Source: Obrimoposthia wandeli (lineage: Eukaryota). Taken from it: a stretch of DNA of 64,000 bases. Below, piece after piece: positions 1 to 54,827 of the stretch (the stretch's first letter is position 1; each line of letters opens with the position of its first letter). The notes under the pieces are model-generated. The model saw nothing but the letters and a program-made list of their open reading frames with translations, ran no database searches and was not told the origin of the DNA. A program made the translations under genes and the position numbers. The stretch covers positions 1 to 64,000 of the forward strand of contig CDROCS010001028.1 of NCBI GenBank assembly GCA_977020255.1, in the 5' to 3' direction.

Positions 1-60
1 TTTCCTTGTTGGCTGATTCAATGAATCATAATTACCAAAGGATTGGTACATATCAATAAT

Positions 61-140
61 TCCCCCTTAGTTCAATTGGAAGAACAATAGACTCTTAAGT
101 GAATCTTTAGATGCTGGTTCGAACCCAGCAGGGAGACCCA
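61..140 (+). pseudogene. Degenerate tRNA-like gene, anticodon CTT (Lys), with 5-nt insertion in the anticodon loop
   Basis: Cloverleaf by eye: acceptor TCCCCCT/AGGGAGA (1 mismatch), D-arm GTTC-AATTGGAA-GAAC, anticodon stem ATAGA/TCTTT around CT-CTT-AA plus extra GTGAA, T-arm GCTGG-TTCGAAC-CCAGC, 3' CCA ending at 140. Confidence 0.7.
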
Positions 141-153
141 AATTCATATTTTC

Positions 154-174
154 CATTTCTAAATGGCTCTAACA
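154..174 (-). mobile_element. Truncated IS1202-family (ISNCY) terminal inverted repeat remnant
   Basis: catttctaaatggctctaaca is 20/21 identical to the IS end at 4921-4941; reads TGT... on the - strand. Confidence 0.65.
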
Positions 175-187
175 CCTTCAGTCTGTC

Positions 188-307
188 ATGTTTGTTTTGC
201 CTGTCTGTTCTCTCTGTAGCGTGATGCAAGTCAGGCAGTTAAAGCTCGAAGATATTAAATCGAAGAAGGCTGCGAACGACGATGATAATGAAAAGGTGGC
301 CGCATGA
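188..307 (+). pseudogene. C-terminal fragment of the phage membrane protein preceding the ATPase
   Basis: Frame MFVLPVCSLCSVMQVRQLKLEDIKSKKAANDDDNEKVAA*; TGA overlaps the ATPase ATG (ATGA); 5' part cut off by the IS end at 174. Confidence 0.45.
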
Positions 308-946
308 AACTCCAACCTGTTAACCAAAACAACACGCTAGGTAATCATCATGCGTATGCGGTTGGCGGGAAAACATCCGTAGCCAAAAAGCTGTTTGTTA
401 AGGATACCGACCAAGTCGTAATTTTCGATCCTCTTAATGGCTACCAAGGAAAACTTTCGGGTCGGGTAGTTCGTAGCTATTCCAACCTGCGTGACTTTGC
501 GATCGCCGTTCTTGCGGGTCGTAAAACCAAGCAAGGGTTTAAGATTGCATACTACCCAAAGTGTGAAACCACCGAAGAAGATTTTGACCGGTTCTGCTCA
601 ATTGCATGGGGTGTCGGTGATGGTAAACATGCCAAACCGATAAAAGTGATCTGTGAAGAAGTTGCCGAGCATAGCCACACTACGGACTATCATGGCAAGC
701 TATTGAGGCTAGGGCGCAAGTACAATATTCATACCATCAAATATGTTTCAACGTGGGCAGGAAGTATCAAAGACGATCATTGATAATTGCCAGTATGCGT
801 GTGTAATGATGCAAAAAGCCGATGATAGTGCGTATTACATCCAACGTAAAACGGGGATACCTGCGAGTGAGGTCATCCCATTGGTGAAACTTGAATATAT
901 TCTGCAGGATGGAAAAGAGTGGGCGAAAGGTGAAATTCAATGGTAA
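304..946 (+). pseudogene. FtsK/HerA-type phage packaging ATPase (PM2 P9-like), frameshifted
   Basis: ORFs 304-783 and 743-946 join by removing one A near 739-741; Walker A shortened (HAYAVG-GKTS), Walker B KVICEE, FQRGQEVSKTI Gln/Arg motif. Confidence 0.75.
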
Positions 947-967
947 AAAGGCCACAAGAATGTGGCC
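945..967 (-). terminator. Rho-independent terminator of the 855-aa ATPase gene
   Basis: Stem ggccaca-agaa-tgtggcc (950-967) followed by a T-run on the - strand, just after the stop at 975. Confidence 0.65.
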
Positions 968-974
968 CATAAAA

Positions 975-3542
975 TCATTTACGTTTTTTATTTCTTTTAT
1001 GTTTAAGTAACTTAAATTGCTTTTCTAATTTATCCAAATCTTCTTGGATTTCATCAGCATCAGGATATTCAATACCTAATCCTCCGGATTTATCATGACC
1101 TGCTAAGTATTTACAGCATGTGTCCATACCGTCTTTGATTGTTTGAATATCCTCTTCAGTTGTATCCAAAAGATGATGATTTTTCGTTGTTTGGACATCT
1201 CGACCAAAACGTTCAACAATACCAAAAATTAACCATTCTTCTACTAATCTTTCCCATGTTTCACGCTTTTTACTATAGAAGGTTCTAATGTTTTCTCGAA
1301 CCTCTTCCATATTATTTAAACGAAAATTCTTCTGTATTTTAACAAGATCTTGTTTGAGTAATCCTATACGCTTTTCAGTTTTAGTTGCATCCCAAGGTGG
1401 ATTATCACTACAAATCCCGACGTTTTTACCCATACGATCAACGGCATGTAAAGCAATGTTTTTATCTGAAGATTCTTCAAGCATTTTCAAAAATGCCAAG
1501 TCATGAGAGAAAACAATAATTTGTCTACTTTTTGATTCCTCGACAATTCTTTCAGAAAACTTTCTTCGCCAATGATGATCTAAAGAATTTATTGGGTCAT
1601 CAAATATTACAGAGGAATTTCTATCATCCACTTTCAATTCAGCTAAAAACCCAGCGAGAGCTATACATTTTTGTTCACCTTCACTCGCGATAGTAGATAA
1701 GTTACTTCCAATGGAGTTAATTTCAAACTTTAGCATTTGCTGACCACTAGAACCTCTGGTTTTAGCTATTATTTCATATCGTTTAAAACCTAATTTTTTC
1801 AGTTGATCTGAAAACTCTTCTTTCAATAAACCAATAAAACCACTCTGACTTATTTCACTATTCAACCTCGTGATTGATGATATGTTTGTTTCTTTTAATA
1901 TGGAGTCTATTCTTTCAACATAAAGTAAATAGTTAATTCTATTCTCAATGATACCAAGTTGAGGCTGAATCACTTTAATGGACTCTAGTAATGCTATCTC
2001 TTCAGTAGTTTTAGATATAAGTGATTTTAGTTCGCTATCACCTTTAACTGCTGCGGTTTTTTCAACAAGTGATTTTATTTTCTTATCAAGCCAAACTACA
2101 CATCTGTCATCTAATTTATCAAAGGCGTAAACAGGTTTTTCACTAATTAGATTAAGTCTTCTGGTGTTTAAGTTATCAAAGTAATCATTAAATGCATCAC
2201 TTATTATTTTTTGAGAACTAGCTAGGTTATTTATGATTCCCTGATGTGAGTCTTTATTTATATTTAATGCCTTGAGTGGATTTATAAATAAATTGAGTTT
2301 TTTATGTAATGCATCATGCTTCTTTTGGACATCACCAGAAAGAAACCTATAAAAATGTTCGAGTCTTAAGGCTGATTCATTGCCAACACCCTGTAAACAT
2401 AATGGACAAGTATCACCATTTTTTAATGGGGTTTGATTCCCTGACGATTGAATGAAAATCATCGCTGAATCCCACATACTTTTCCATGTTTGAGTTCCTA
2501 TTTCATTGTAAGGTAGGTTCTCAAATGTTGATTTAGTTATTTGATTTAAAGCAAAATTTGCAGTTTCATATTCGTCTGATAAGTTCTTTATTTGTAATAC
2601 TGCATCATCATTTAATAGCTTTGTTAATCTTGTTAACTCATCAAAGAGTGGCTTTAATAATGAATGCTGATGACTAAAGTGCTGTTTTAGCTTTTCTGGC
2701 GACTTACTTGTAAGCTCTGTCAGTAGTTCTTTTTTTGTTTTAAGAGTTTCGGCATCAAACTCAAAATTGCTCTTAAACTCAGTTAGCTTAGTTTTAGAGT
2801 TCACAGTTTGATAAAAGTCACTAACTTTATTTTTTATAGGAAAATTTATAATCGGTAGATTTACTATCGGATGCTTATATTTCTCAAGTTCAATTTTCAC
2901 ATGTTTACATGCTTTAATTAACTCATCTAACAAATTCATTCCTGACAAGTTAAAATCAAGATTGTCTTCTTTATTTATATAATGATGAGCAGAGCTATTA
3001 TCAAATACTCTTATTGACTTGAGATTGTTGTTATCCTTAATGTGGCGAGCCCATCTAATACTATCTTTAACACCTGAAACACTAATGTTAAGTGTTGCTG
3101 ATGGCTCATCTTTACATCCATTAAATGCATTACCTATTACTATTGGTTTATCGCCACGGGTTAAACAAGCATTTTTTAAAACTCTTGTATAACTAGATTT
3201 ACCAGAACCGTTATCACCATATATAACTGTAATTCCCTCAGAGGAAAAGTTGAGTACTTGATTAGGCTGTAAAGCCCCTATGTTGACAACATCTGATATT
3301 GATTCAAGAATAACCGATTCATTTTTTGATTGATTACCCATTGGGGTTATTGGTTTTTTATATACCTCATATTCTGGTGTTTTAGGAACTAGAGCACTTT
3401 GCATTAATGCAATATTAATCAATATATTGTAGTCATCAATAGTCAATTTCGTTTTTTCAAGAGCAAGCCTAACAGCATGTCTCCACCATACCGGACGGCG
3501 AGTATCATTCGTCCAATTTATTATTTGCTCGGTGGGAGTCAT
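975..3542 (-). CDS. RloC-like ABC/SMC-type ATPase with zinc hook and C-terminal HEPN-like domain (candidate anti-phage protein)
   Basis: Walker A GDNGSGKS, CPLC zinc hook inside coiled coils, signature SEGEQK, Walker B/D-loop VIFDDPINSLD, H-loop SHD, C-terminal RETWERLVEE...KYLAGH; AT-rich and intact. ATPase call is solid; RloC/HEPN call is inference. Confidence 0.75.
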   Translation of the reverse strand: MTPTEQIINWTNDTRRPVWWRHAVRLALEKTKLTIDDYNILINIALMQSALVPKTPEYEVYKKPITPMGNQSKNESVILESISDVVNIGALQPNQVLNFSSEGITVIYGDNGSGKSSYTRVLKNACLTRGDKPIVIGNAFNGCKDEPSATLNISVSGVKDSIRWARHIKDNNNLKSIRVFDNSSAHHYINKEDNLDFNLSGMNLLDELIKACKHVKIELEKYKHPIVNLPIINFPIKNKVSDFYQTVNSKTKLTEFKSNFEFDAETLKTKKELLTELTSKSPEKLKQHFSHQHSLLKPLFDELTRLTKLLNDDAVLQIKNLSDEYETANFALNQITKSTFENLPYNEIGTQTWKSMWDSAMIFIQSSGNQTPLKNGDTCPLCLQGVGNESALRLEHFYRFLSGDVQKKHDALHKKLNLFINPLKALNINKDSHQGIINNLASSQKIISDAFNDYFDNLNTRRLNLISEKPVYAFDKLDDRCVVWLDKKIKSLVEKTAAVKGDSELKSLISKTTEEIALLESIKVIQPQLGIIENRINYLLYVERIDSILKETNISSITRLNSEISQSGFIGLLKEEFSDQLKKLGFKRYEIIAKTRGSSGQQMLKFEINSIGSNLSTIASEGEQKCIALAGFLAELKVDDRNSSVIFDDPINSLDHHWRRKFSERIVEESKSRQIIVFSHDLAFLKMLEESSDKNIALHAVDRMGKNVGICSDNPPWDATKTEKRIGLLKQDLVKIQKNFRLNNMEEVRENIRTFYSKKRETWERLVEEWLIFGIVERFGRDVQTTKNHHLLDTTEEDIQTIKDGMDTCCKYLAGHDKSGGLGIEYPDADEIQEDLDKLEKQFKLLKHKRNKKRK

Positions 3543-3730
3543 ATAGATCGTTCCATGTCTAGAAAATAAGGCAGAATATTACCATCTAACTCGACGTAAA
3601 TAACGCGATTTGAATCAACTTTGTAACGTTTAAACCTATAGGTTAAGGGGCTTTTTTTCGTTTGCCTTAAAACCGAATCACCTGTTTTCCTATTGGCTCT
3701 TAATCACGTTTATACAGAGAGCTAATAAAC

Positions 3731-3853
3731 ATGAATGCAAAAACTAAAGGGTATGCAGTCACAGCAGTCACAGCAGTGATTGCACTGCTTGTCGCGGCTG
3801 GTGTTGTCTGGGCATCAAACAATGTTGATGCTGTTGAAGACCAAATCGGTTAA
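3731..3853 (+). CDS. Small phage membrane protein (PM2 P7-like), 40 aa
   Basis: MNAKTKGYAVTAVTAVIALLVAAGVVWASNNVDAVEDQIG: one TM helix plus WASNN, directly upstream of the capsid gene; in-frame 9-bp duplication gcagtcaca at 3755-3772; not in ORF track. Confidence 0.65.
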   Translation: MNAKTKGYAVTAVTAVIALLVAAGVVWASNNVDAVEDQIG

Positions 3854-3862
3854 GGGGCAAGT

Positions 3863-4072
3863 ATGGAACTGTTAAGCACAAACTTCGCTCCACGCCCTAA
3901 AGAACTCGACCCAATTGAAGGTGTAGGTTGGGGCAATCGTGCCTCACTGCGTATGGTGTCGGGTCCCACTTATCACAGCATCGAATTGGTAACTAATATT
4001 ACCGTTCCAAAAAACATTGAACGTGTTGTGGCCAAGTTTCTGGCGCGATTCCCGTCGTTGCTGCCATGTTGA
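3863..4072 (+). pseudogene. Truncated double jelly-roll major capsid protein (PM2 P2-like N-terminus)
   Basis: ELDPIEGVGWGNRASLRMVSGPTYHSIEL parallels the PM2 P2 N-terminus as recalled (LNSIPNVAAGNSCSIKLPIGQTYEVIDL); similarity stops near 4030 at a deletion junction. Confidence 0.7.
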
Positions 4073-4110
4073 TTGGCTTATGGGATACGTTCAGAAAAGA
4101 GAAGAAATAG
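4033..4110 (+). pseudogene. C-terminal fragment of a small phage membrane/lysis-module protein
   Basis: Alternate frame QVSGAIPVVAAMLIGLWDTFRKEKK* (TM plus basic tail) begins where capsid similarity ends. Confidence 0.45.
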
Positions 4111-4115
4111 GGGGT

Positions 4116-4310
4116 TTGGATGGGATAATTGATAAAGCTCTTTGCTGAACTGGGGGGCACACCGCCAACCCTTATTATTTGTTACCTACTTTCCGCTCAG
4201 TAAAGGCGCATGAATCCGTTCTAAGTGAGCTCAAAAAGATGCTGGCACACCATGAGAAGCGGATCATGAAATTAGAGTGGGAAACGAAGAGCTCTAATCA
4301 ACAAAATTAA
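4116..4310 (+). pseudogene. Holin-like single-TM/coiled-coil phage protein with frameshifts
   Basis: Reconstructable as about 64 aa MDGIIDKALAELGG...RSVKAHESVLSELKKMLAHHEKRIMKLEWE... only by correcting 1-bp indels. Confidence 0.4.
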
Positions 4311-4406: not shown

Positions 4407-4677
4407 GTGAAATTAAAATTATTGAGATTTTTATGTATTACCATAATTTTATCTATAACTGGTTGTGCAGGTATTAGAGGATATGGTGAATCGGGAAGGA
4501 TCAATTACTCTAATGTTTGTGTTATTGAAAATGCTAAGGTGAGTTGCTTACATTGATTGGGATGCAGGTCGAAGTCCTATGCCAGCAAAAATTCCAGATA
4601 AAACCTTTAATACTGTGGAGTTCTGGCAAACAGCTGAGGCTTTAGCTGGGTTATTTGGAGAGATTCAGATCAAGTAA
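4407..4677 (+). pseudogene. Lipoprotein gene with internal deletion/frameshift
   Basis: GTG start, signal peptide with lipobox ITGC, VCVIENAKV, then a frame change to ...YIDWDAGRSP...EIQIK*. Confidence 0.45.
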
Positions 4678-4716: not shown

Positions 4717-4891
4717 TTTGTAGCTAGAGGCTAGGGAAGTTTCTTAGCCATTTTCCTTTCTGCCATAGCGTGTCGATACTCCTTCTTTTTCTCCTTAGTC
4801 ACAGTGTCACTTTTTGTTGCTTTAATCCGATGATTACCACGAAATGGCAATGGCGTGACAACAAGTAAATGGTGTTTTGAGGTTAGTTCAA

Positions 4892-4941
4892 CATGACATT
4901 TCTATCTGGCTCAAACCGGACATTTCTAAATGGTTCTAACA
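4892..4941 (-). mobile_element. Orphan IS1202-family end (older insertion)
   Basis: - strand TGTTAGAACCATTTAGAAATGTCC...TAGAAATGTC: TGT terminus, TGTC at offset 20-23 as in both ends of the adjacent IS, repeated internal binding motif. Confidence 0.7.
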
Positions 4942-4946
4942 CCGTC

Positions 4947-6508
4947 TGTTTATCCCAATTTAAACTGTCCTGCTTTATTCCCAGATTAAAATGTCTCCTT
5001 TCAAGGTAGTTCATCCCGCTTAGAAATAGGCTATAGAGTAGGGACGTCAGCCTTTCTTGGTGCAGGGTTTGAACGTTTCAGGGCTGGCTAAGACTGGGTT
5101 GAGCGCCCGTAATTGTTGTACCGCACGCTGTTGAGCGGTTCGTTTAGGGGCTTTTTTACTGCGACTGCGTTTGTGTTGTTGTTCGAACTCTTGTTGTTTC
5201 TCTTGGGCAAATTTCAATACTGCGCCGAGCCGTTTATTATCAACCACTTGGCCTTGGTCCACATCAGCCAATTTGTCGAAGATTTTGAATTCTAATTTTC
5301 GATGGCCGTACTGGATCGCAATGGTGCCATCGGGATAATCCAACACTTTCACAGCCTCTTGTGTGAGCCGGCTATTTTCTTCTGTAGGGACAATAAGGTA
5401 AAGAACCTTGTCGTACTGAAAAGTCAGTGATTTCGATAGCTTACGTATTTCGTGCCAGGCAAAGGTATCATCCAAATCTTCAGGTGTTTCTCTGACGGTA
5501 CGGTGCATGTCTTTGGGGTAACAGGCTGGCTTGGCAAAGCGTCGGTTAAAATCAGCGATAAAGTCGGGCAGCCAGACATTCGCTTGTTCAATTGTATCAA
5601 TGCCTTGTAGGCGCATTTCTTTGACTAGGCGATCTTGTAATGTTTTGTTCGCACGCTCAACGCGGCCTTTGGCTTGTGAGCTGTTGGCGCAAATCAGTTC
5701 AATGTTTAAATCATTCAACACCCGACCAAACTGGGTCAACCGTTCAGTTTGAGCATCACGTTTACTGACATGGAATACCGCATGGCGATCGCTGTAAAAG
5801 GCCGACGGTTTACCGTGTTGTTCAATGTATTCGCGAGTAGCGACCATGTAGTCAAAGGCAGATTCCGTTTCACTGAAGCGCAGGTTCATTAGCTACCGGT
5901 GGCATCGTCGATGTATACCAGCAAGCAGCATTTCGCGCTGCGACCTTCAAACCAATCATGGTGAGAGCCATCAATTTGAATGAGCTCACCCAGACAATCA
6001 CGACGGTGACGAGGTTGGTAAATCCGTGGCTTACGTTTGGCATGCGGCACCCAAAGGCCATCGGCAATCATCCATTGGCGCAGGGTTTCTAACGAGATAT
6101 GAATGTCATGAACCTCAGCCAATTTCTCATGAGCCAGCGTGGGTCCAAAATCAAAATAGTGTTGATGTATTATCTCGAGGCAACTGAGCCGAACATCGTC
6201 ATTAATTTTGTTCGAAGATGGCAAGCCACGGCGTTGATGAGTAATACCAACAGCACCAAGTTGACGAAAGCGAGTGATCAGCCGCTGAACTTGTCGAACA
6301 CTCAGCGACAGAATACCTGCAGCATCTGATCGTCGGATTCGTTTCTCGCAAACATCGCGAATAGCATTCAGGCGTAAAATGTCTTTTTCATTCATCGTTA
6401 TCAACATCGTTTGTTAATCTCACACAGATCAGATAGGTACTGATCACCATAGGAAAAACAGGACATTTTTGCTTTGCAGAAAAGAGACACTTTAGCTTTG
6501 CGCCTACA
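4947..6508 (-). mobile_element. IS1202-family (ISNCY) insertion sequence targeted next to dif, 5-bp target duplication CCGTC
   Basis: Ends TGTTTATCCC... (4947) and ...GCGCCTACA (6508), both TGT-N11-TAAA-N-TGTC; CCGTC at 4942-4946 and 6509-6513; DDE transposase inside. Confidence 0.9.
5047..6407 (-). pseudogene. ISNCY/IS1202-family DDE transposase, split by a 1-nt frameshift
   Basis: N-part HTH and LIQIDGSHHDWFEGR...VYIDDATG; C-part YSDRH and SSQAKGRVERAN; frame breaks at ggt-agc-taa near 5890. Confidence 0.85.
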
Positions 6509-6513
6509 CCGTC

Positions 6514-6541
6514 AGTGCGCATTATGTATATTATGTTAAAT
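6514..6541 (+). other. dif: Chromosome dimer resolution site dif (XerC arm, spacer, XerD arm)
   Basis: AGTGCGCATTA-TGTATA-TTATGTTAAAT. Confidence 0.95.
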
Positions 6542-34754: not shown

Positions 34755-34868
34755 AGCTACACTTACAATGAATACATCATTGGCATTAGCCAACTAAACA
34801 CAAGTGATTAATCTAATTAATCACTTGTTTTTTTTATTCCCCAATGGGGCTTTGGAGTTGATAGAAAA

Positions 34869-35900
34869 ATGAAAAAATGGTCTGCTTTATTTACTGGTGC
34901 TGCATGTGCAGCCGCTATGTTTACGACTACAGCAAACGCAGCAAATAAGGAATTAGTCTTCATGAACTGGGGGCCGTACATTTCTACGGAACTTAGAGAA
35001 CAGTTCACGAAAGAAACTGGTATTAAAGTCATTTATTCGACTTACGAATCGAATGAAACAATGTACGCTAAGTTAAAAACACACCCACAAGGTTACGACT
35101 TGGTTGTACCTTCAACATATTTCGTTGCAAAGATGCGTGACGAAGGTATGTTGCAGAAAATTGATAAATCAAAGCTGACCAATTTTGATGAATTAGATGA
35201 AAACTATCTCAATAAGCCTTTTGATCCAAACAATGATTACTCTATGCCGCATGTGGTCGCAATGACAGGCTTAGCCGTAAATACCGATATGTATGATCCT
35301 GCCGATTTTGACAGCTGGGCTGACTTATGGGACCCAAAATTTAAAGGTCAATTGATGCTAATGGATGACACTCGCGAAGTCTTCCATATAGCATTACGCA
35401 AACTGGGCTATTCTGGTAACACGACAGATCCTAAGCAAATCGATGAAGCAAAAGAAGAGCTGAAAAAGCTGATGCCTAATGTATTAGTCTTTAATTCAGA
35501 TAACCCTGCAGCACCCTACTTAGCAGGTGAAGTTGGCTTAGGTATGCTTTGGAATGGTTCTGCCGCAGCGGCACAAAAAGAAGGTTTACCTATTAAGTTA
35601 ATTTGGCCCAAAGAAGGCGGTATTTTCTGGGTTGATAGCTTAGCCATTGCTAAAAATGCACAAAATGTTGAAGCGGCTCATAAAATGATCGACTTTTTAC
35701 TTCGCCCTGAGATTGCTGCGAAAATCTCTGAAGAAACCGGTTATTTAACCGCGGTTAAAGCATCTAACGCAAAATACAAAGACGACCCTACTCTTTTCCC
35801 ACCACAAGAAGATTTAGACCGTGGTGAGTGGCAAGATGCGGTTGGCGATATGAACATCCGCTATGAAAATTACTTTCTTGAACTAAAAGCTAGCCAATAA
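34869..35900 (+). CDS. potD: Polyamine-binding periplasmic protein (first copy)
   Basis: STYESNE, YDLVVPS, WNGSA. Confidence 0.9.
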   Translation: MKKWSALFTGAACAAAMFTTTANAANKELVFMNWGPYISTELREQFTKETGIKVIYSTYESNETMYAKLKTHPQGYDLVVPSTYFVAKMRDEGMLQKIDKSKLTNFDELDENYLNKPFDPNNDYSMPHVVAMTGLAVNTDMYDPADFDSWADLWDPKFKGQLMLMDDTREVFHIALRKLGYSGNTTDPKQIDEAKEELKKLMPNVLVFNSDNPAAPYLAGEVGLGMLWNGSAAAAQKEGLPIKLIWPKEGGIFWVDSLAIAKNAQNVEAAHKMIDFLLRPEIAAKISEETGYLTAVKASNAKYKDDPTLFPPQEDLDRGEWQDAVGDMNIRYENYFLELKASQ

Positions 35901-36142
35901 TTATTCGATGATGGTTTAAGCAAGGCAATCAGCTTATATAATAGGCTTGATTGCCTTTATAATCGCTAACTTAAGACGTTAGCTTTATAGTTCTGCTATA
36001 ATTACCCCTTATTTTACTTACACTAAAATGGAAATATCATGTACGTTAAATCGTTGATCTGTTTTTCCATTTTATTAGGAGAAGCGGTATATACCGCTAG
36101 AGAGCACTCTCGAAATTCCTGTTTGTTAGGAGCAACAACATA

Positions 36143-37186
36143 ATGAAAAAATGGTCCTCTTTAATGACCAGCGGCATCTGTGCTGCTGCAATGTTTACTA
36201 ATGTAGCGATGGCAGCAGATGAAGAACTGTATTTCTACAATTGGTCTGAGTATATTCCGTCGGAAGTGCTAGAACAGTTTACGAAAGAAACTGGCATTAA
36301 AGTTATTTATTCGACTTACGAATCAAATGAAACCATGTACGCTAAACTTAAAACCTTTGGCGAAGGTTATGACCTAATCGTACCATCAACGTATTATGTA
36401 TCTAAGATGCATTCTGAAGGTATGCTACAAAAAATTGATAAAACGAAGTTGCCACATTTTAAAGATCTTGATCCTAATTTCTTGAACAAGCCTTTTGATC
36501 CTAATAACGACTTCTCTATTCCATACATTTGGGGCGCAACAGGTATTGGTGTTAACACCGATATGATGGATAAATCTGAAGTCAGCGGTTGGGCTGATCT
36601 TTGGGACCCTAAATGGGAAGGTCAATTAATGATGATGGATGACTCACGTGAGTTCTTCCACATTGCCCTTCGTAAATTAGGCTATTCAGCTAACACTACG
36701 AACCCTGAAGAAATTAAAGCAGCATACGAAGAATTGAAAAAACTGATGCCAAACGTATTAGTATTCAACTCTGACTACCCTGCAAACCCATACATGGCAG
36801 GTGAAACGTCACTGGGTATGTTATGGAATGGCTCTGCATACATGGCGCGTCTTGAAGGTGCTCCAATCGATATCGTATGGCCGAAAGAAGGTGCTATTTT
36901 CTGGATGGATAGCTTGTCTATTCCGGCAAAAGCGAAAAATACAGAAGCCGCTCATAAGATGATCGACTTCTTACTTCGCCCAGAAAACGCAGCAAAAATT
37001 GCTGTTGAAATTGGCTACCCTACACCAGTAGCAACAGCTAAGAAGTTATTGCCTGCTGAATTTGTAAATGACAAAAATATCTTCCCACCACAAGACGTAC
37101 TTGATGCGGGTGAATGGCAAGATAATGTTGGCACAGCAAATACACTTTATGAAGAATATTACCAAAAGCTAAAAGCAGGTCTGTAA
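36143..37186 (+). CDS. potD: Polyamine-binding periplasmic protein (second copy)
   Basis: YNWSEY, STYESNE; paralog of the preceding gene. Confidence 0.9.
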   Translation: MKKWSSLMTSGICAAAMFTNVAMAADEELYFYNWSEYIPSEVLEQFTKETGIKVIYSTYESNETMYAKLKTFGEGYDLIVPSTYYVSKMHSEGMLQKIDKTKLPHFKDLDPNFLNKPFDPNNDFSIPYIWGATGIGVNTDMMDKSEVSGWADLWDPKWEGQLMMMDDSREFFHIALRKLGYSANTTNPEEIKAAYEELKKLMPNVLVFNSDYPANPYMAGETSLGMLWNGSAYMARLEGAPIDIVWPKEGAIFWMDSLSIPAKAKNTEAAHKMIDFLLRPENAAKIAVEIGYPTPVATAKKLLPAEFVNDKNIFPPQDVLDAGEWQDNVGTANTLYEEYYQKLKAGL

Positions 37187-37226
37187 TTTACTTACCGCAA
37201 TTGCTTTAAAATATGATGCATAAAAT

Positions 37227-37255
37227 AAAAAGAGGCTCTTATGAGCCTCTTTTTT
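37227..37255. terminator. Bidirectional terminator
   Basis: aaaaagaggctc-ttat-gagcctcttttt. Confidence 0.8.
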
Positions 37256-37280
37256 ATAGGTGAATACTGTAGAAAAAATA

Positions 37281-38003
37281 CTACTTGGCGCTTAATATTT
37301 CGCCGATGAACTCAGGCACCAATTTCGATGCTGGCCCATAGCGTTTTTCAGCAAATTCGCTTTGAACTTCACTTGGTTCTAAGTTCAGTTCAACAGTATG
37401 CGCGCCATGCATTGCAGCTTCATGAACAAAACCAGCGGCAGGATATACTGCACCAGATGTACCAATCGAAATAAACAAATCTGCTTTTAGTAACGCATCG
37501 TGTATACGCTCCATCCCGATTGGCATTTCACCAAACCACACAACATTAGGACGCAAAGGTGAAGGGATCTGACAGCAATGACAGTGGTCATCTAACTTTA
37601 TATCGCCTTGCCAATGAATACTCTGCCCTGTACCGCCACATTGTGCTTTTAATAATTCACCATGCATGTGGATAACATTTTTGCTGCCTGCCAACTCGTG
37701 CAAATTATCTATATTTTGAGTCACAATCGTAACTGTGCCATTAAGTTCGGCTTCAAGCTTGGATAAAGCAAGGTGGGCAGCATTGGGAGAAACGGTCCCA
37801 CTTTCTAGTTGCTGTCGACGTTGGTTATAAAAATTTTGGACTAAATTAGGATTGCGGCGGTACCCTTCTGGTGTTGCAACATCTTCAATGTGATGGTTTT
37901 CCCATAAACCATCTTGATCTCTAAATGTTCGAATACCAGATTCAGCAGAAATGCCCGCACCAGTTAAAATAACAATATTACGGTAGGGAAAAAGCATACT
38001 CAC
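37281..38003 (-). CDS. cobB: NAD-dependent deacylase (sirtuin)
   Basis: [28 protein letters not shown]. Confidence 0.95.
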
Positions 38004-38337
38004 TGTCCTTATTGTAACGATATACTATTTATACCATTGTTTTTATATGGTTTTAACCTACTTCGTATACGACAATGGTCTAACAAGACTATATAAAGCT
38101 CACAATCTTTAATGAATGGGTTGTATTTGGACTTTTTAGCCACTTATCGTTTTCGATAAGTGCTTCAACGACCTCATTGCTTTGTTTATATTAGTTACCA
38201 ATATAAAGTTATAGTGCACTAGGTTATTATAGATAACATAGCTTCTTTCATTACTGAGACTTCTCGTATTCTAACAGATCGGTAAGGCATTATAAATTAA
38301 GGTATTTCACATAAACTATATATACCAAGCTAATAAA

Positions 38338-38364
38338 AAGCCGATGGTTTAGTACCATCGGCTT
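38338..38364 (-). terminator. Terminator of the fdh operon
   Basis: aagccgatggt-ttagt-accatcggctt. Confidence 0.65.
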
Positions 38365-38410
38365 CTCTTTAACATTACAACGTCTACGCGAAATAACTTC
38401 GCATCAGTCG

Positions 38411-39487
38411 CTATACATTATCTTGGCTCGCTTTACCTTTCAATTCAGCATCTAACTTTTCATCATAACCGGGTTGGTTTTCAGGAAGATCTTTCACTTC
38501 TTCGTACCATAAGTCGTGGTGTTCTTTCGCCCACGTCTCATCGACTTCACCCGTAATCATGCCGTCTAATGCTGCTTCCATACCAAATAAACCAATATAG
38601 ATATGGAACACAAAACCACAGATTAAGATCAAAGCAGAGAACATATGCACGAGATTAGATAATTCCATATCACGGCGTGTTTGCCCGAACATAGGAAAAT
38701 CTAATACAAACCCACTTATAGCAATAAAAAGACCAAACCAAATCAGCAACCAAAAAATGACCTTTTCACCACCATTAGAAAATCCAGCGGATGGGTGCTT
38801 GCCTTTATGCTTACCCACCATTCCGCCTAGTTTCATGAACCATTGCATATCCACTTTGTTAACTATGCTCTTACGCCACCACTTAACTAAAACAGTTAAT
38901 AATAAAATGGCAAAGATAGGCCCCATGTAATTATGGTATTGCTTCGCGGCATAAATAACCCAACCCCAAATTTCTGATGGCACAATAGGTTTAATGAAAT
39001 GCTTACCATAAACCAGTGTTAATCCACTGAATGCTAACGTTAAGAACGTAAACGCCATGCTCCAGTGTAAGGCTCGATCCATACGGCTCCAGCGCTTAAT
39101 TTTACGACCAGTTTTAGGTTTACTTAGCTTCAAAGGGCCAATCGTGACGTACGCAAGCGCAACCATTGCAAGGCTACCGAAGATAGCTAATGCACCTAAT
39201 GGTGACATCCATTTTTCTTTCAGAATGAACCACGTCTGCCCGGGAACACTGATCAATACACCATGCTCTGGTGATTGCGATGTTGTTGTCCCTTCTTGAC
39301 CATTCTTGACCGCGCGCCAATAGTCAGCCCCAGCGAAACCTGTCATTTCACCTTTAATGACAGATTCCCCTAAGCGCTCATTCTTTATTTTTTGGCTCGA
39401 CTCTTCACTGGCCATTGCCGACAAAGCAAACGTCAGCATAAATGCAGTAACCAATAAAGTGAACCAACGTAGAATTCGCTTAGTCAT
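38411..39487 (-). CDS. Formate dehydrogenase gamma subunit (cytochrome b)
   Basis: RALHW, FNGGEK-like FSNGGEK, HIYIG, GMITG. Confidence 0.9.
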   Translation of the reverse strand: MTKRILRWFTLLVTAFMLTFALSAMASEESSQKIKNERLGESVIKGEMTGFAGADYWRAVKNGQEGTTTSQSPEHGVLISVPGQTWFILKEKWMSPLGALAIFGSLAMVALAYVTIGPLKLSKPKTGRKIKRWSRMDRALHWSMAFTFLTLAFSGLTLVYGKHFIKPIVPSEIWGWVIYAAKQYHNYMGPIFAILLLTVLVKWWRKSIVNKVDMQWFMKLGGMVGKHKGKHPSAGFSNGGEKVIFWLLIWFGLFIAISGFVLDFPMFGQTRRDMELSNLVHMFSALILICGFVFHIYIGLFGMEAALDGMITGEVDETWAKEHHDLWYEEVKDLPENQPGYDEKLDAELKGKASQDNV

Positions 39488-39635
39488 TAAAACTCCTAAC
39501 TGCTTATACAAAACAGCTGTAGATAGAAATCAGTTTTGTGACTACATACTGATTTCAGTATTTTCATATCATCTTTCTACAATGGCTTGCTCGCGCGTGT
39601 ACGGTTACACACAAACGAGCGAACCAAATAAGAAA

Positions 39636-40253
39636 TTAGGCTTTGTATTCTTTACTTGCATCGTATGCAAGATCATCAACATTTGCCCAACCCGCCTCTT
39701 TCGCACCACGTGCAACTACACGCTCACGGAAGACATCGGAGATTTTAGCGGCATCACCTGCTAACAACGCTTTGGTTGAACAAAGCGATGCACACATAGG
39801 TAACTTACCTTCGGCAATACGGTTTGCACCGTATTTTTGTTTCTCTTCAATCGAGCCTGGCTCAACACCAGGGCCACCTGCACAGAAAGTACACTTATCC
39901 ATCTTGCCACGTTCAGCAAAGGCATCCTCTTTAGGAAACTGAGGTGCACCAAAAGGACAAGCAAACAAGCAGTAACCACAGCCAATGCAAAGGTCTTTAT
40001 CGTGACGAACAATACCGTCTTCAGTTTGTTCGAAACAATCGGCAGGGCAAACCGCCATACAGGGTGCATCTGAACAATGCATACAAGCGACAGAAATCGA
40101 CGTTTCACCGGGTTCACCATCGTTTAGGGTGACAACGCGTCGACGTTGAATACCCCACTCTAGTGCATCATCGTTTTCGTTCTTACATGCGGTAACACAA
40201 CCATTGCACTCGATACAACGCTTAGAGTCACAAAGAAATTTCATACGTGCCAT
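39636..40253 (-). CDS. Formate dehydrogenase beta (Fe-S) subunit
   Basis: CIECNGC, CMHC, CIGCGYC, CTFC. Confidence 0.93.
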   Translation of the reverse strand: MARMKFLCDSKRCIECNGCVTACKNENDDALEWGIQRRRVVTLNDGEPGETSISVACMHCSDAPCMAVCPADCFEQTEDGIVRHDKDLCIGCGYCLFACPFGAPQFPKEDAFAERGKMDKCTFCAGGPGVEPGSIEEKQKYGANRIAEGKLPMCASLCSTKALLAGDAAKISDVFRERVVARGAKEAGWANVDDLAYDASKEYKA

Positions 40254-40265
40254 CTGAATGACTCC

Positions 40266-43121
40266 TTACGCTTTAGAGATTTTACATAGGGTTACTTTGG
40301 TTTCCTGCATTTGTGTTACAGGGTCATAACCGTATGTTGTTGCAGTGTTCGCCGATTCACCCGACACGTACGGTGCAGAGCCTTCAGGGTAGTTACCACG
40401 AAGATCTTCACCTTCAAAATAACCACCAAAGTGGAATGGAAGAAATGCTAAGCCCGGTTTTACACGACGAGTGACCATCGCTTTAACGTGAATACGGCCT
40501 TTCTCTGCACCTTCAACCCACACCATATCGCCATCGCGGAAACCAAGATCATTCGCATCTTTAGGATTTACTTCTACAAACATTTCTCGTTGTAGTTCAG
40601 CAAGCCAAGGGTTTGAACGGGTTTCATCGCCACCACCTTCGTATTCAACCAAACGACCGGATGTAAGAATCATTGGGTATTCACCCGATACATCTTTATC
40701 TTGAATCGACTTATAGAGTGTAGGTAGACGGAACATTGCTTTACTGTCATTCCACGTTGGATAGTCAGCAACCAAGTCACGACGTGGTGTGTATAGCGGC
40801 TCACGGTGAAGAGGCACTGCATCAGGGAATGTCCATACAACTGCACGTGCTTTTGCATTACCAAAAGGAATACAACCGTGTTTAATCGCAACACGTTGGA
40901 TACCACCAGAAACATCTGTTTTCCAGTTTTTACCTTCTGCTTTTGCTTTTTCTGCGTCGGTTAAATCATCCCACCAACCGAGTTGCTTCAATAGCTTATC
41001 GGTAAATTCAGGGAAACCGCCTTCAAGCTCACAACCCAAAGAATAACTATCAACAGCCAGTAAGCTTTCACCTTCACGTTCTACACCAAAGCGTGCACGG
41101 AAGTTACCACCGCCTTGCGCGACTGTTTTAGATGTGTCGTAAAGAATATGCGTACCAGGGTGCTTCATTTCTGGTGTACCCCAACATGGCCAAGGAAGGC
41201 CATAGGTTTCACCATCAGCAACGCCACCTTCACCTTCTAACGTTGTTTTGTGGAAGGTATGCCAGTTTTGTTGGTGCGCTTTAAGACGCTCAGGGCTTTG
41301 GCCTGTATAACCAATGGTCCACATACCTTTGTTATATTCACGGGTAATGTCTTCAATCACTGGAATATTATTTTCAACTTTAATGTGCTTAAAAAGCTGA
41401 TCAGATAAACCGAGTTTTTGCGATAATCTAAACATGATTTCATGATCAGGTTTAGATTCAAATAGCGGCTCAATAACCTGATCACGCCACTGAATAGAAC
41501 GGTTTGTTGCGGTTACAGAGCCTGTGGTTTCAAACTGTGTGGTTGCTGGTAGCAAATACACGTTATCGGTACGACCGTTCATAACGGCTGCAACACCTGG
41601 GTACGGATCGACGATAACCATCATATCCAGTTTACCCATTGCGATACGCATTTCAGGACCACGAGTTTGAGAGTTTACTGCGTGTCCCCAATAGAACATT
41701 GCTCGAATATTATCGTTTTGCTCAATGTTATCTTTGTTTTCCAGTACGCCATCGATCCAACGAGAAACAGGAATACCAGCATGGTTCATTGGCTTTTTAC
41801 CGCTGTAATCAGCTTGATCAAAACGGCCTTTTAGCCATTCGTAATCAACATCCCACACGCCTGCCCAGTGTTTCCATGCACCTTCAGAAAGGCCGTAGTA
41901 ACCCGGTAAGTTATCAGACAATACGCCAAAGTCAGTCGCACCTTGCACGTTATCGTGACCACGGAAGATATTAGCACCGCCACCTGATTTACCCATGTTG
42001 CCTAGAGCAAGCTCAAGAATACAGTAAGCACGTGTGTTGTTATTACCGGTTGTATGTTGAGTACCACCCATACACCACACTACACAACCAGGGCGATTTT
42101 CAGATAGCAGTTTTGCCGTTTCATAAACATCAGCTTCTGGCACCCCAGAAACACGTTCAACTTCAGCAGGTGTCCATTTTGCCACTTCTTTTCGTACGTC
42201 TTCCATGCCGTAAACACGTTGACGAATAAACTCTTTATCTTCCCAGCCATTTTTAAAGATGTGGTACAACACACCCCAAACGAAAGCAACATCAGAACCT
42301 GGACGTAAAGAAACATAGTGGTCAGATTTTGCAGCCGTACGTGTACGACGCGGATCGGCCACGACGATCTTACAACTGTTCTTTTCTTTTGCGATCAAGA
42401 TGTGCTGCATAGCAACAGGGTGTGCTTCAGCAGGGTTCGAACCGATAAATAGAATCGACTTACAGTTATGCATGTCGTTCAACGAGTTTGTCATGGCTCC
42501 GTAGCCCCACGTGTTTGCAACACCGGCTACTGTCGTCGAGTGACAAATACGTGCTTGGTGATCGACATTGTTAGTCCCCCACATCGACACCATTTTACGG
42601 AATAAATACGCTTGCTCGTTATTATGCTTAGCAGAGCCTAACCAATAAACAGAATCGGGGCCTGATTCTTCACGAATCTTAAGCACTTGTTTACTGATTT
42701 CGTCTAATGCTTGTTCCCAGCTCAGTTTGGTCCACTTGCCGTCAACCAACTTCATTGGGTATTTAATACGCTTAGCACCATGACCATGCTCACGCAGTGC
42801 TGCACCTTTTGCACAGTGACCGCCCGCATTGAATGGGTGATCAAAAGCAGGCTCTTGCCCTGTCCATACCCCTTCCTGTACTTCAGCATAAATGCCACAG
42901 CCAACAGAACAGTGCGAACAAATGGTACGTTTAATTTCAACTGGCGATGTAGGGTCGACAATCTTAGCTTCTGCTTTTTTCATCATGCCAGGCGCAAACA
43001 TGCTGGCACCAGCAACGCCACCAGCAGCGGCGAGTGACGTATTACGAATAAAGGAACGACGAGAAATACCTAATTGGTTTTCGTCCTTGCTGACATTATC
43101 GGAACGTTTTGTTAGTTTCAT
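40266..43121 (-). CDS. Formate dehydrogenase alpha subunit (Mo/W-bisPGD, Cys ligand, Tat-exported)
   Basis: SRRSF Tat motif, CSHCSVGC, RICHS, RGHDNVQG. Confidence 0.95.
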   Translation of the reverse strand: MKLTKRSDNVSKDENQLGISRRSFIRNTSLAAAGGVAGASMFAPGMMKKAEAKIVDPTSPVEIKRTICSHCSVGCGIYAEVQEGVWTGQEPAFDHPFNAGGHCAKGAALREHGHGAKRIKYPMKLVDGKWTKLSWEQALDEISKQVLKIREESGPDSVYWLGSAKHNNEQAYLFRKMVSMWGTNNVDHQARICHSTTVAGVANTWGYGAMTNSLNDMHNCKSILFIGSNPAEAHPVAMQHILIAKEKNSCKIVVADPRRTRTAAKSDHYVSLRPGSDVAFVWGVLYHIFKNGWEDKEFIRQRVYGMEDVRKEVAKWTPAEVERVSGVPEADVYETAKLLSENRPGCVVWCMGGTQHTTGNNNTRAYCILELALGNMGKSGGGANIFRGHDNVQGATDFGVLSDNLPGYYGLSEGAWKHWAGVWDVDYEWLKGRFDQADYSGKKPMNHAGIPVSRWIDGVLENKDNIEQNDNIRAMFYWGHAVNSQTRGPEMRIAMGKLDMMVIVDPYPGVAAVMNGRTDNVYLLPATTQFETTGSVTATNRSIQWRDQVIEPLFESKPDHEIMFRLSQKLGLSDQLFKHIKVENNIPVIEDITREYNKGMWTIGYTGQSPERLKAHQQNWHTFHKTTLEGEGGVADGETYGLPWPCWGTPEMKHPGTHILYDTSKTVAQGGGNFRARFGVEREGESLLAVDSYSLGCELEGGFPEFTDKLLKQLGWWDDLTDAEKAKAEGKNWKTDVSGGIQRVAIKHGCIPFGNAKARAVVWTFPDAVPLHREPLYTPRRDLVADYPTWNDSKAMFRLPTLYKSIQDKDVSGEYPMILTSGRLVEYEGGGDETRSNPWLAELQREMFVEVNPKDANDLGFRDGDMVWVEGAEKGRIHVKAMVTRRVKPGLAFLPFHFGGYFEGEDLRGNYPEGSAPYVSGESANTATTYGYDPVTQMQETKVTLCKISKA

Positions 43122-53353: not shown

Positions 53354-53861
53354 TTTCTTCAGCGCCGTAACGATACGAACCATGTTACGGCGTAACCGAT
53401 TTTTATTTATCCGCCTTTATATCATCATCATTACTTCGTTAATATTTTGACTTAATAAACGCCTTCTTTTTGACGAAGCAACCTTGATATAAATAAATCT
53501 AACAAAACAATGAGACACCCATTTCATATTAAATCATTCGAAATATGACCGAGTTATCATAAACAATGATAAATGTATAATTTATATGGTTAAAATTAAT
53601 AAATATAATGACTTTGTAGAAGAATAATTATTAAATATCTACCCTAAGTATATAAAGATATTCAAAGTAGTCGTCTGGTACAGTTCTTACACGTAATGGA
53701 TAACCGTGTACGAACCTTTTCAACTCGAGACAATCGATAGTTATATGATAAACCGGAATATAAAAGGCACTGAATTCACTACTTATCGAAAATTACAGAC
53801 TAAACATTACTAACTTAAAGAAAATTAATACTATTCTCATATTTCTAAGGTTCGTTATATT

Positions 53862-54827
53862 ATGTTAAAAAAAGCCATTATTCTTATATCAGTGGGTGTT
53901 TCGTTTTGTACTCAAGCGACCCCATTGCTAACAAAAACCGAGCAAGAACAAGTCAGCTCTGTAAGAGAACAGTTTAATGATACTGCTGAATTACAAAAAT
54001 TAACGAAAGTTAATAGCAGTATATTTACGTTAACCAACCAGACTAGTCAGTTAAAAGCTTCGATTGTTAACGAAAGAAAAGCCTACCAAGAGTTCCAACA
54101 AAAACTAAGCAAAGAGATGCTCTCTGGCACAGAAGAAAATACAAATTACTACTTTGAGTCAATGAAAAAGACATCAAATAAGATTAAAACAAACAATGAT
54201 ACAATTCACAAAAATACGGCACTTGTCACTCAATACAACGCGGAACTTGAGAAGCTAAACCACTCTATTCGCCAATCAAAAAACACGTATAGCGATAAGC
54301 TTACCACCATCAAAAATAGCGTTGTTACCCGTATAAAAACAGAATTTTCAAAGCCTCTTCCTATTAAAATAGAAGGCAAGCTTCAATGCTCCCCTTATGA
54401 ATCTATTCGCGCCTGTTTTGAAAGCAAACAAACGACAAGTAAGCTTGTGAATGATGCTATTGAATCTCGCTTTGGTCAGATTGACATTACAAGCAGTACC
54501 AATCAATTTACGGTCAATTCAGCCAGTATGGACTTTGAAGGGAATGTTGATTACAACGTCAGCTTTAACTTGTTTGTTCAATATAATGAACAAATCAATG
54601 CTCAAATCATGAAAGAAGTCGGCATTAACTCATTTGATATCATGCTTGTAAGCAATAAAAATGCAATGTTCTACATTGATGGGTTACCAGTAGGAAACGG
54701 CAATAATGTCTCGGTAAAAGTATCAAAGGGTAAATACTCGATACTGGCTAAATTTGATGATAAACAAGAATCATCAATTCAAAGTATCACTAGCCCAGTT
54801 AGCTTAACGTATAACTTTTCAAGCTAA
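53862..54827 (+). CDS. Secreted coiled-coil protein with C-terminal PEGA-like domain
   Basis: Signal peptide, long coiled coil, FYIDGLPVG...VSKGKY. Confidence 0.6.
   Translation: MLKKAIILISVGVSFCTQATPLLTKTEQEQVSSVREQFNDTAELQKLTKVNSSIFTLTNQTSQLKASIVNERKAYQEFQQKLSKEMLSGTEENTNYYFESMKKTSNKIKTNNDTIHKNTALVTQYNAELEKLNHSIRQSKNTYSDKLTTIKNSVVTRIKTEFSKPLPIKIEGKLQCSPYESIRACFESKQTTSKLVNDAIESRFGQIDITSSTNQFTVNSASMDFEGNVDYNVSFNLFVQYNEQINAQIMKEVGINSFDIMLVSNKNAMFYIDGLPVGNGNNVSVKVSKGKYSILAKFDDKQESSIQSITSPVSLTYNFSS

Follow-up and report, generated by a model that had tools for sequence, protein, structure and literature searches.

A decayed PM2-like prophage at dif in a Photobacterium contig with an intact RloC-like cargo gene that the host has probably kept

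The closest described relatives of the element reported here are the dif-type double jelly-roll (DJR) prophages of Vibrio (PM2/NO16-like, Vinavirales), which in the sections of PMC12715192 and PMC9966536 that deal with them have a P9-like packaging ATPase, P7, the capsid protein P2, lysis genes and a p15/XafT-like gene by dif. Integration of these prophages by XerCD is proposed in both papers and called inconclusive in the corresponding section of PMC11630473. The non-tailed Vibrio prophages also contain hypervariable regions, termed pHVRs, which hold AT-rich, swappable and defence-enriched cargo and are placed in the available text between the lysis and lysogeny modules (PMC12715192, PMC11630473), and degraded CTX-I inoviruses are described in the same sources as relic prophages keeping cargo. 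RloC is annotated in two tailless Vibrio prophages, as gene 2 and as gene 18, with a position other than ATPase/capsid in the one checked (PMC11630473). Cargo hotspots, relics that keep cargo and RloC on prophages are already published. The locus compared with them here lies at the start of a stretch of 64,000 nucleotides, termed the window, which is the first 64 kb of a bacterial contig (CDROCS010001028.1) within the 1.35-Gb Obrimoposthia wandeli assembly GCA_977020255.1, the contig starting at base 1. The element is assigned as a decayed dif-type PM2-like prophage in a Photobacterium contig and shares the gene set of the Vibrio prophages, whereas its Photobacterium host, its decay and an extra variable slot between the ATPase and P7 genes set it apart.

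The reading favoured here, with a probability of about 0.6, is that this prophage wreck belongs to a lineage with a swappable ATPase/P7 slot and that the intact RloC-type gene in the slot, termed the cargo gene, has likely been retained by the host. The features on which the argument rests are as follows, with positions in the window.

213 to 306, forward strand: 3' fragment of the phage gene upstream of the ATPase (blastn to C5135, L017, L018 and L052)
304 to 946, forward strand: broken DJR packaging ATPase (P9-like) with two 12-bp deletions and a 1-bp insertion
950 to 967, reverse strand: terminator-like hairpin of the cargo gene, 7 bp followed by 5 U, 7 nucleotides past the stop
975 to 3542, reverse strand: intact cargo gene of 855 amino acids, RloC-like (PADLOC PDC-S06), fully open over 2,568 bp
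3631 to 3730, forward strand: conserved intergenic element at the right slot border, at the position of the PM2 late promoter, common to the slot-bearing loci compared
3731 to 3853, forward strand: P7-like small structural gene, open in comparison with relatives
3863 to 4029, forward strand: 5' fragment of the P2-like major capsid gene, about 55 codons (Pfam P2_N, PHROG 8536)
4033 to 4110, forward strand: 3' end of a holin-like gene, now continuous with the capsid fragment through the loss of about 4.8 kb
4120 to 4310, forward strand: broken small gene of the lysis region (comparison with L018 and L019)

Lesions in the phage genes were called against four intact references, namely the loci L017, L018 and L052 and, on contig C5135 of this assembly, a prophage of the dusA/integrase type. 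The ATPase gene is 83-86% identical at the nucleotide level to the ATPase genes of these relatives, lacks 12 bp in the Walker A region (~366) and a further 12 bp at ~680, and is split into two frames by a 1-bp insertion at ~739. The capsid fragment (3863-4030) matches Pfam P2_N above the cut-off (E = 3.8e-14) and the PHROG major head protein (E = 4.8e-16) and is 91% identical in nucleotides to the full-length genes of relatives. It is cut at ~4029 and joined to the 3' end of the holin-like gene, with 4,758-4,791 bp missing compared with L018, L017 and L052, so that ~4.8 kb of structural genes is deleted from the remnant. The holin-like label is the authors' reading of a small membrane protein after the lysin and not a database match. 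In the small lysis-region gene that follows, codon 3 is a premature stop and 1 bp is deleted (4189). A 9-bp duplication in the P7 gene was considered as a further lesion and dropped, since L050 has the same duplication, and P7 is regarded as intact. The gene order ATPase-P7-P2 is that of PQ189288, and the GC content is 0.45 in the phage remnants, 0.40 in the host and 0.32 in the cargo gene. A first-pass annotation of the window had proposed the broken ATPase, with a shortened Walker A and a frameshift, the truncated capsid gene, the DJR identity and the fully open, AT-rich antisense gene, all of which stand; it had ascribed the breakage of the lysis-like genes to indels, and these are indeed broken, mainly by the one large deletion together with a stop and a single indel.

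The difference in damage between phage and cargo genes is the central observation for retention. The 1,295 bp of phage coding DNA contain five small lesions and the 2,568 bp of the cargo gene contain none (p = 0.004), and for frame-breaking lesions alone the counts are three and none (p = 0.038). Substitutions specific to the window cargo fall on conserved columns in only 3 of 41 cases, compared with 33% of columns being conserved (p = 1e-4). A parallel is found in P. sagamiensis (L019), in which the same cargo gene, intact and 92% identical, has identical borders; the prophage around it, likewise located at this dif site, has lost its left arm and the capsid-to-lysin block, with deletion end points other than those of the window. 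Between the window and L019 the cargo gene has a synonymous divergence (dS) of 0.38 and a dN/dS of 0.098, and the ATPase a dS of 0.92. Because the cargo dS is 0.38 whereas a host gene compared between the two hosts is saturated at silent sites, the cargo was acquired separately in the two hosts. Five other damaged clade members have an open slot reading frame (L050, L053, L055, L056 and L131). The search that recovered them used the ATPase as bait and is thereby biased towards the gene next to it, and most of them are without a full-length reference. Selection for keeping the cargo gene in the host is considered probable on this evidence. The same proposal in the first-pass annotation is supported by the lesion statistics and the L019 parallel; the one other prophage found with this cargo at the position is itself decayed, and no intact one was found.

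The cargo protein matches the PADLOC model PDC-S06 over its full length (E = 1.5e-276), a candidate that appears in six listed papers and is not named in the available main text of the preprint (bioRxiv 10.1101/2024.01.29.577857). It is composed of a Rad50/SMC-like ABC ATPase split by a coiled coil, with a CxxC hook at the apex and a C-terminal helical domain. The AlphaFold model (pLDDT 88.9) resembles the SMC and Rad50 heads and is all-helical in the C-terminal region. Across 104 homologues there is no variation in Walker A, C379/C382, the signature, Walker B, H680, E764 and H816, and 101 of them have R760. RloC of G. kaustophilus, as described in the pertinent sections of PMC2610378 and PMC3458546, has the same arrangement of an ABC ATPase split by a coiled coil, a CxxC hook and a C-terminal R-x3-E...H triad, and is likewise a single gene that needs no linked restriction system. 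PMC2610378 defines RloC by the ATPase, the hook motifs and an R-x3-E-x36-52-H triad, each residue of which is essential, and gives a length range of 658-897 amino acids; the cargo triad R760-E764-H816 reads R-x3-E-x51-H and falls within this motif. RloC excises the tRNA wobble nucleotide in a DNA- and ATP-dependent manner, and is described as controlled by the zinc hook and the DNA-break-responsive ATPase (PMC3458546). In contrast with RloC, the cargo protein belongs to the PDC-S06 model set, lacks the motif R-x4-6-H and shows AAA_13 only through its distant homologues, which match this family above the cut-off, and its function is a prediction from sequence. The assignment of the cargo as an RloC-type, DNA-break-triggered tRNase is regarded as quite likely. 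This identity, RloC-like and PDC-S06, is what the present analysis adds to a first-pass annotation that was otherwise largely right.

The hairpin at 950-967 folds better than all 200 of 200 shuffled sequences (z = -4.1) and is kept in L019, while a terminator consensus scan did not list it, so that the earlier claim of a terminator belonging to the cargo is borne out by the fold and not by the scan. A promoter scan stands at chance level (16 compared with 16.3). The cargo family is patchy, occurring in 29 of 401 family genomes, 49 plasmids and 42 viral contigs, the plasmid matches being 49 distant full-length homologues with <60% identity. P0002 is an 86% homologue whose genomic context is not readable, and an ESM Atlas search with the tail of a homologue returned unnamed clusters, one with 13% AAA_13, as a lead only. 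Pieces of the cargo gene, ~99% identical, occur in three sequencing studies, one of which may be the source sample; there is no RNA dataset among the listed holders of the cargo sequence, which says nothing on expression. On contig C882 of the same assembly (34860-37450, L015) a distant PDC-S06 homologue is present in five pieces and is either a pseudogene or an assembly error.

The slot was surveyed by collecting ATPase loci from genomes, viral contigs and assemblies and measuring how far P7, or else the capsid gene, lies from the end of the ATPase. Before the tree was built, 18 duplicate rows, five fragments of <150 amino acids, L043 and L057 (ATPase end not reached) and L094-L109 were dropped, the last being repeats of loci already present or refetched with longer flanks. 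The resulting ATPase tree of 47 rows contains a Photobacterium clade of 24 rows with support 100/100, and all 24 have an insert of 0.54-3.0 kb between the ATPase and P7 (in L026, where P7 was not found, measured to a capsid scrap). Outside the clade 19 rows have the usual 115-151 bp, three have inserts of 0.55-0.62 kb and one is cut off, giving three filled slots among 22 scorable rows. The broken ATPase of the window is not in the tree and is nearest to clade members. The first-pass annotation had suggested a cargo hotspot of non-tailed prophages in general at the ATPase/P7 junction; the hotspot is supported, but as a property of this one Photobacterium clade more than of non-tailed prophages at large. 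Photobacterium hosts with out-of-clade phages (L041 and L044) have an empty slot, as do two Photobacterium prophages with a divergent ATPase (L147 and L156), and since these hosts lack the insert the slot is taken to be a trait of the phage lineage.

The insert borders lie just past the ATPase stop and at the conserved element upstream of P7, for which promoter activity is only presumed. The slot contains 45 open reading frames (43 in Photobacterium-type loci and two outside) that fall into 39 families with a median GC of 0.35. Among 28 clade cassettes scanned, nine have PADLOC matches at E <= 1e-5, with the models PDC-S06 (twice), S20, S46, S47, S49, M22A/B, partial M36A and partial M68A; five further cassettes have PIN, NACHT, MazG, CoiA-nuclease or DUF4062 domains, one has a weak LmuB match and 13 show nothing informative. 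Unrelated low-GC genes thus lie between conserved core genes in close relatives, which is the general mark of a prophage hotspot, whereas the published pHVRs lie between lysis and lysogeny modules and the slot described here is inside the ATPase-P7-P2 core block. The published lysis-p15 slot is present separately, with for example an AbiGi-like gene in L019. Among the flanking genes listed in Table S5 of PMC11630473, many of which are given only as 'hypothetical', none bears the label of a packaging ATPase or a capsid gene, and no description of the ATPase/P7 block as a hotspot was found in the literature searched by title and abstract. The corticoviral elements of P. profundum SS9 and 3TCK (Krupovic and Bamford 2007, PMC1950889) have an additional open reading frame inside the gene IX/VII/II block, which the relevant section treats as an exception in two genomes and not as a clade-wide, hypervariable, defence-enriched slot. 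The new element of the present work is a second, clade-specific cargo slot in tailless prophages, located elsewhere than the Vibrio lysis-lysogeny slot.

No repeats or insertion sequence (IS) ends flank the cargo gene, and transposition into the slot was rejected on this ground. Movement of the cassettes by recombination in the conserved flanks is suggested because the cargo dS to L019 is 0.38 compared with 0.92 for the ATPase and because flanking repeats are lacking. The prophage at C5135:17000-30400 (L009-L011), an intact-looking integrase-type DJR prophage, has a 472-amino acid slot gene with a partial PDC-M36A match. Since its clade-type ATPase sits with a Vibrio-type capsid (~28% to the clade capsid), it is a mosaic whose crossover lies close to P7. 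In many clade members the conserved pre-P7 element is overlapped by a strong hairpin with a U-run (L025, z = -4.5; L017 was also compared); in the window (3615-3665) and L019, both with antisense cargo, the left arm of this hairpin is gone (z = +1.2), the link with orientation not being strict. Outside the clade, L042:1064-1354 and L061:8976-9278 have related H-type lectin-like genes in the same slot.

Several observations weigh against the favoured reading. The death of the prophage is recent because only 3 of 139 invariant ATPase columns are altered. At ~0.064 nonsense per missense change about one stop would be expected in a neutral cargo gene, and the absence of stops alone is weak evidence for retention. 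Private cargo substitutions number 41 on the window branch compared with 14 on that of L019, which could reflect some relaxation, and the pairwise dN/dS mostly records time in live phages. An intact prophage whose slot holds this cargo was not found: 30 homologue loci from 401 family genomes (1.5-kb flanks) gave no further case, none of the 42 viral contigs is an intact carrier, and no close cargo relative is present in 50,697 phage records, two metagenome scans and the viral contigs. For the slot, the empty sites of L147 and L156 count in the same direction, the PDC models are candidates only and the PADLOC match rate stands without a background rate. In the cargo protein the canonical HEPN motif R-x4-6-H, listed for the RloC family in the section concerned of PMC3710099, is absent, with no arginine 4-6 residues before H816. 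Its C-terminal domain (residues 706-855) has no match in Pfam or solved-structure sequences, and a separate single-sequence model of this domain is unusable (pLDDT 46). The few altered ATPase columns, the single expected stop and the excess of private substitutions over L019 would all be accounted for if the prophage died recently and the cargo gene has not yet been hit. Such neutral survival is thought unlikely, as five small lesions and the 4.8-kb deletion are concentrated in the phage genes with none in the twice-longer cargo, the private substitutions avoid conserved columns and the same outcome is seen in L019. The differing dS values of cargo and ATPase, which indicate differing histories of cassette and backbone, together with the failure to find an intact carrier, would also fit a cargo gene that recombined into the dead prophage from a superinfecting relative and is young at the site rather than retained. 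This late arrival is improbable given that the window-specific frameshift lies ~235 bp from the cargo in the ATPase half most like L019 and that two such events in two host species would be required, and even then the gene would have come via the phage slot.

A defence or DNA-damage protein of other chemistry, in which an SMC-like sensor is joined to an unrelated helical tail that is not an anticodon nuclease, is a minority view that accounts for the missing R-x4-6-H, the unmatched residues 706-855 and the lack of a profile match between the cargo and the other AAA_13-like cargo of the slot. Whole-protein fold searches were filled by the ATPase domain and neither found nor excluded HEPN structures. 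The R-x3-E-x51-H arrangement nevertheless fits the RloC triad, each residue of which is reported as essential in the G. kaustophilus enzyme, the CxxC hook is invariant, 855 amino acids is within the reported RloC range and AAA_13 is matched above the cut-off by distant homologues, and the RloC-type assignment is preferred. The breaks might also be long-read assembly errors in a phage less damaged than it looks, given that this bacterial contig is only a passenger of a 1.35-Gb assembly and that C882 has its PDC-S06 homologue in pieces; this is very improbable. Of the host genes shared with G002, 46 of 47 align in one frame without a stop (the remaining gene aligns at 71% with one stop), 12-bp and 4.8-kb deletions are atypical of read errors, and the ATPase lesions at 680 and 739, the premature stop and the 4189 deletion all recur in short-read contigs from run X1, which may be the source sample. 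Because the neighbouring host genes are clean and four of the five small lesions recur in short reads, the lesions are taken as genuine damage and not a general assembly error. The premature stop is present in run X3 of a separate study too; an X3 contig also crosses the capsid/holin junction, but it reaches only 24 letters past it on one side, too few for the junction to count as bridged. Host genes of the window are 93% identical to the genome holding L052 (Photobacterium frigidiphilum) and 92-93% identical to three other genomes, and on the strength of this identity the host is placed in the P. frigidiphilum-like Photobacterium group of the L052 genome.

The element runs past 4310 to the p15/XafT-like remnant, and its ends and the adjoining sequences are as follows.

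1 to 175, strand not assigned: end of an IS-related element truncating the prophage on the left (the IS end at 4921-4954 recurs at 154-187)
4407 to 4677, forward strand: AT-rich lipoprotein-like open reading frame, apparently split over two frames (three-frame translation), at the lysis-p15 variable slot known from published work
4734 to 4862, reverse strand: 3' remnant of the terminal gene of dif-type prophages, p15/XafT-like (matched by the L019 gene in tblastn, E = 2e-10)
4863 to 4941, strand not assigned: IS-end remnant truncating the p15-like gene (IS-end repeats)
4947 to 6508, reverse strand: ISNCY-family insertion sequence adjoining dif (NCBIfam NF033594), transposase split at 5889
6514 to 6541, forward strand: chromosomal dif site, fitting the Vibrio dif consensus as given in PMC12715192

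The dif location claimed in the first-pass annotation is confirmed by the site at 6514-6541 and the p15-like remnant, and the p15-like gene of L019 matches DUF3653. Two IS pieces separate the remnant from dif, of which the ISNCY element has a 5-bp direct repeat on each side, and the IS-free joint, an allele without ISNCY beside dif, is found in run X1. No homologue of the open reading frame at 4407-4677 is present in 67 genus genomes, so that its split into two frames is tentative. On the left, window 2-186 shares 95% identity with DNA next to an IS in L050 and L052. The left arm of the prophage is absent, the contig ending at base 1, and the far end, at which dif-type DJR prophages, themselves without an integrase, carry the p16 repressor and the second att junction, is unseen. 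A search of the assembly with the left arm of a relative returned only C5135 and a repressor region on C2331, where the left end of a dif-type DJR prophage (37117-40711, L125; repressor and early genes) is interrupted by a transposase; this piece may be what the element in the window has lost on its left, or it may come from another strain. On a second strain-like contig (C1688:145695-150500, L012) the surroundings of dif agree with those in the window, including an ISNCY of 90% identity at the corresponding position; the DJR remnant there differs, consisting of a lysin fragment and a holin, and a cluster lying upstream matches PDC-M68B and ABC-3C CTD10. ISNCY elements adjoin dif or prophage ends in several Photobacterium genomes (the window, L052, L057 and L131), and targeting of dif-adjacent DNA by ISNCY is possible. 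Short ATPase fragments beside or outside prophages (C5135:30557-30674 and window-like scraps in L050, L052, L130 and L132) suggest that integration and decay have been repeated at the same sites. A XerD-arm-like motif at 53845-53872 overlaps a host gene start and is probably due to chance.

In the course of events proposed for the window the prophage would have entered at dif by means of the host XerCD, by analogy with the accounts available in PMC12715192 and PMC9966536. The section on PM2 in PMC1950889 places the ATPase at the end of the early operon and a late promoter before gene VII. Because the slot is at this early/late boundary, an insert there likely interrupts no operon, and the boundary would tolerate inserts, which would be exchanged by homologous recombination in the conserved flanks. 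As predicted from the RloC descriptions in PMC2610378 and PMC3458546, the Rad50-like ATPase and zinc hook would hold the C-terminal nuclease silent until DNA breaks, for example from phage infection, release it to cut tRNA anticodon loops and stop translation in the infected cell. Deletions and IS insertions would have removed the phage functions while selection spared the cargo.

In wider terms, it is an evenly balanced proposition that a Photobacterium clade of tailless phages has a second, nearly always filled defence slot, that its members have collapsed repeatedly at dif and that an RloC-like gene has been domesticated twice in two host species. The PDC-S06 candidate family would be placed with RloC, with three residues named (R760, E764 and H816). 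Prophage hotspots are a proven route to defence genes, and the slot yields a list of candidates in which about half of the 28 cassettes are uninformative; if the proposition is true, the many unannotated slot genes would be a new pool of anti-phage systems.

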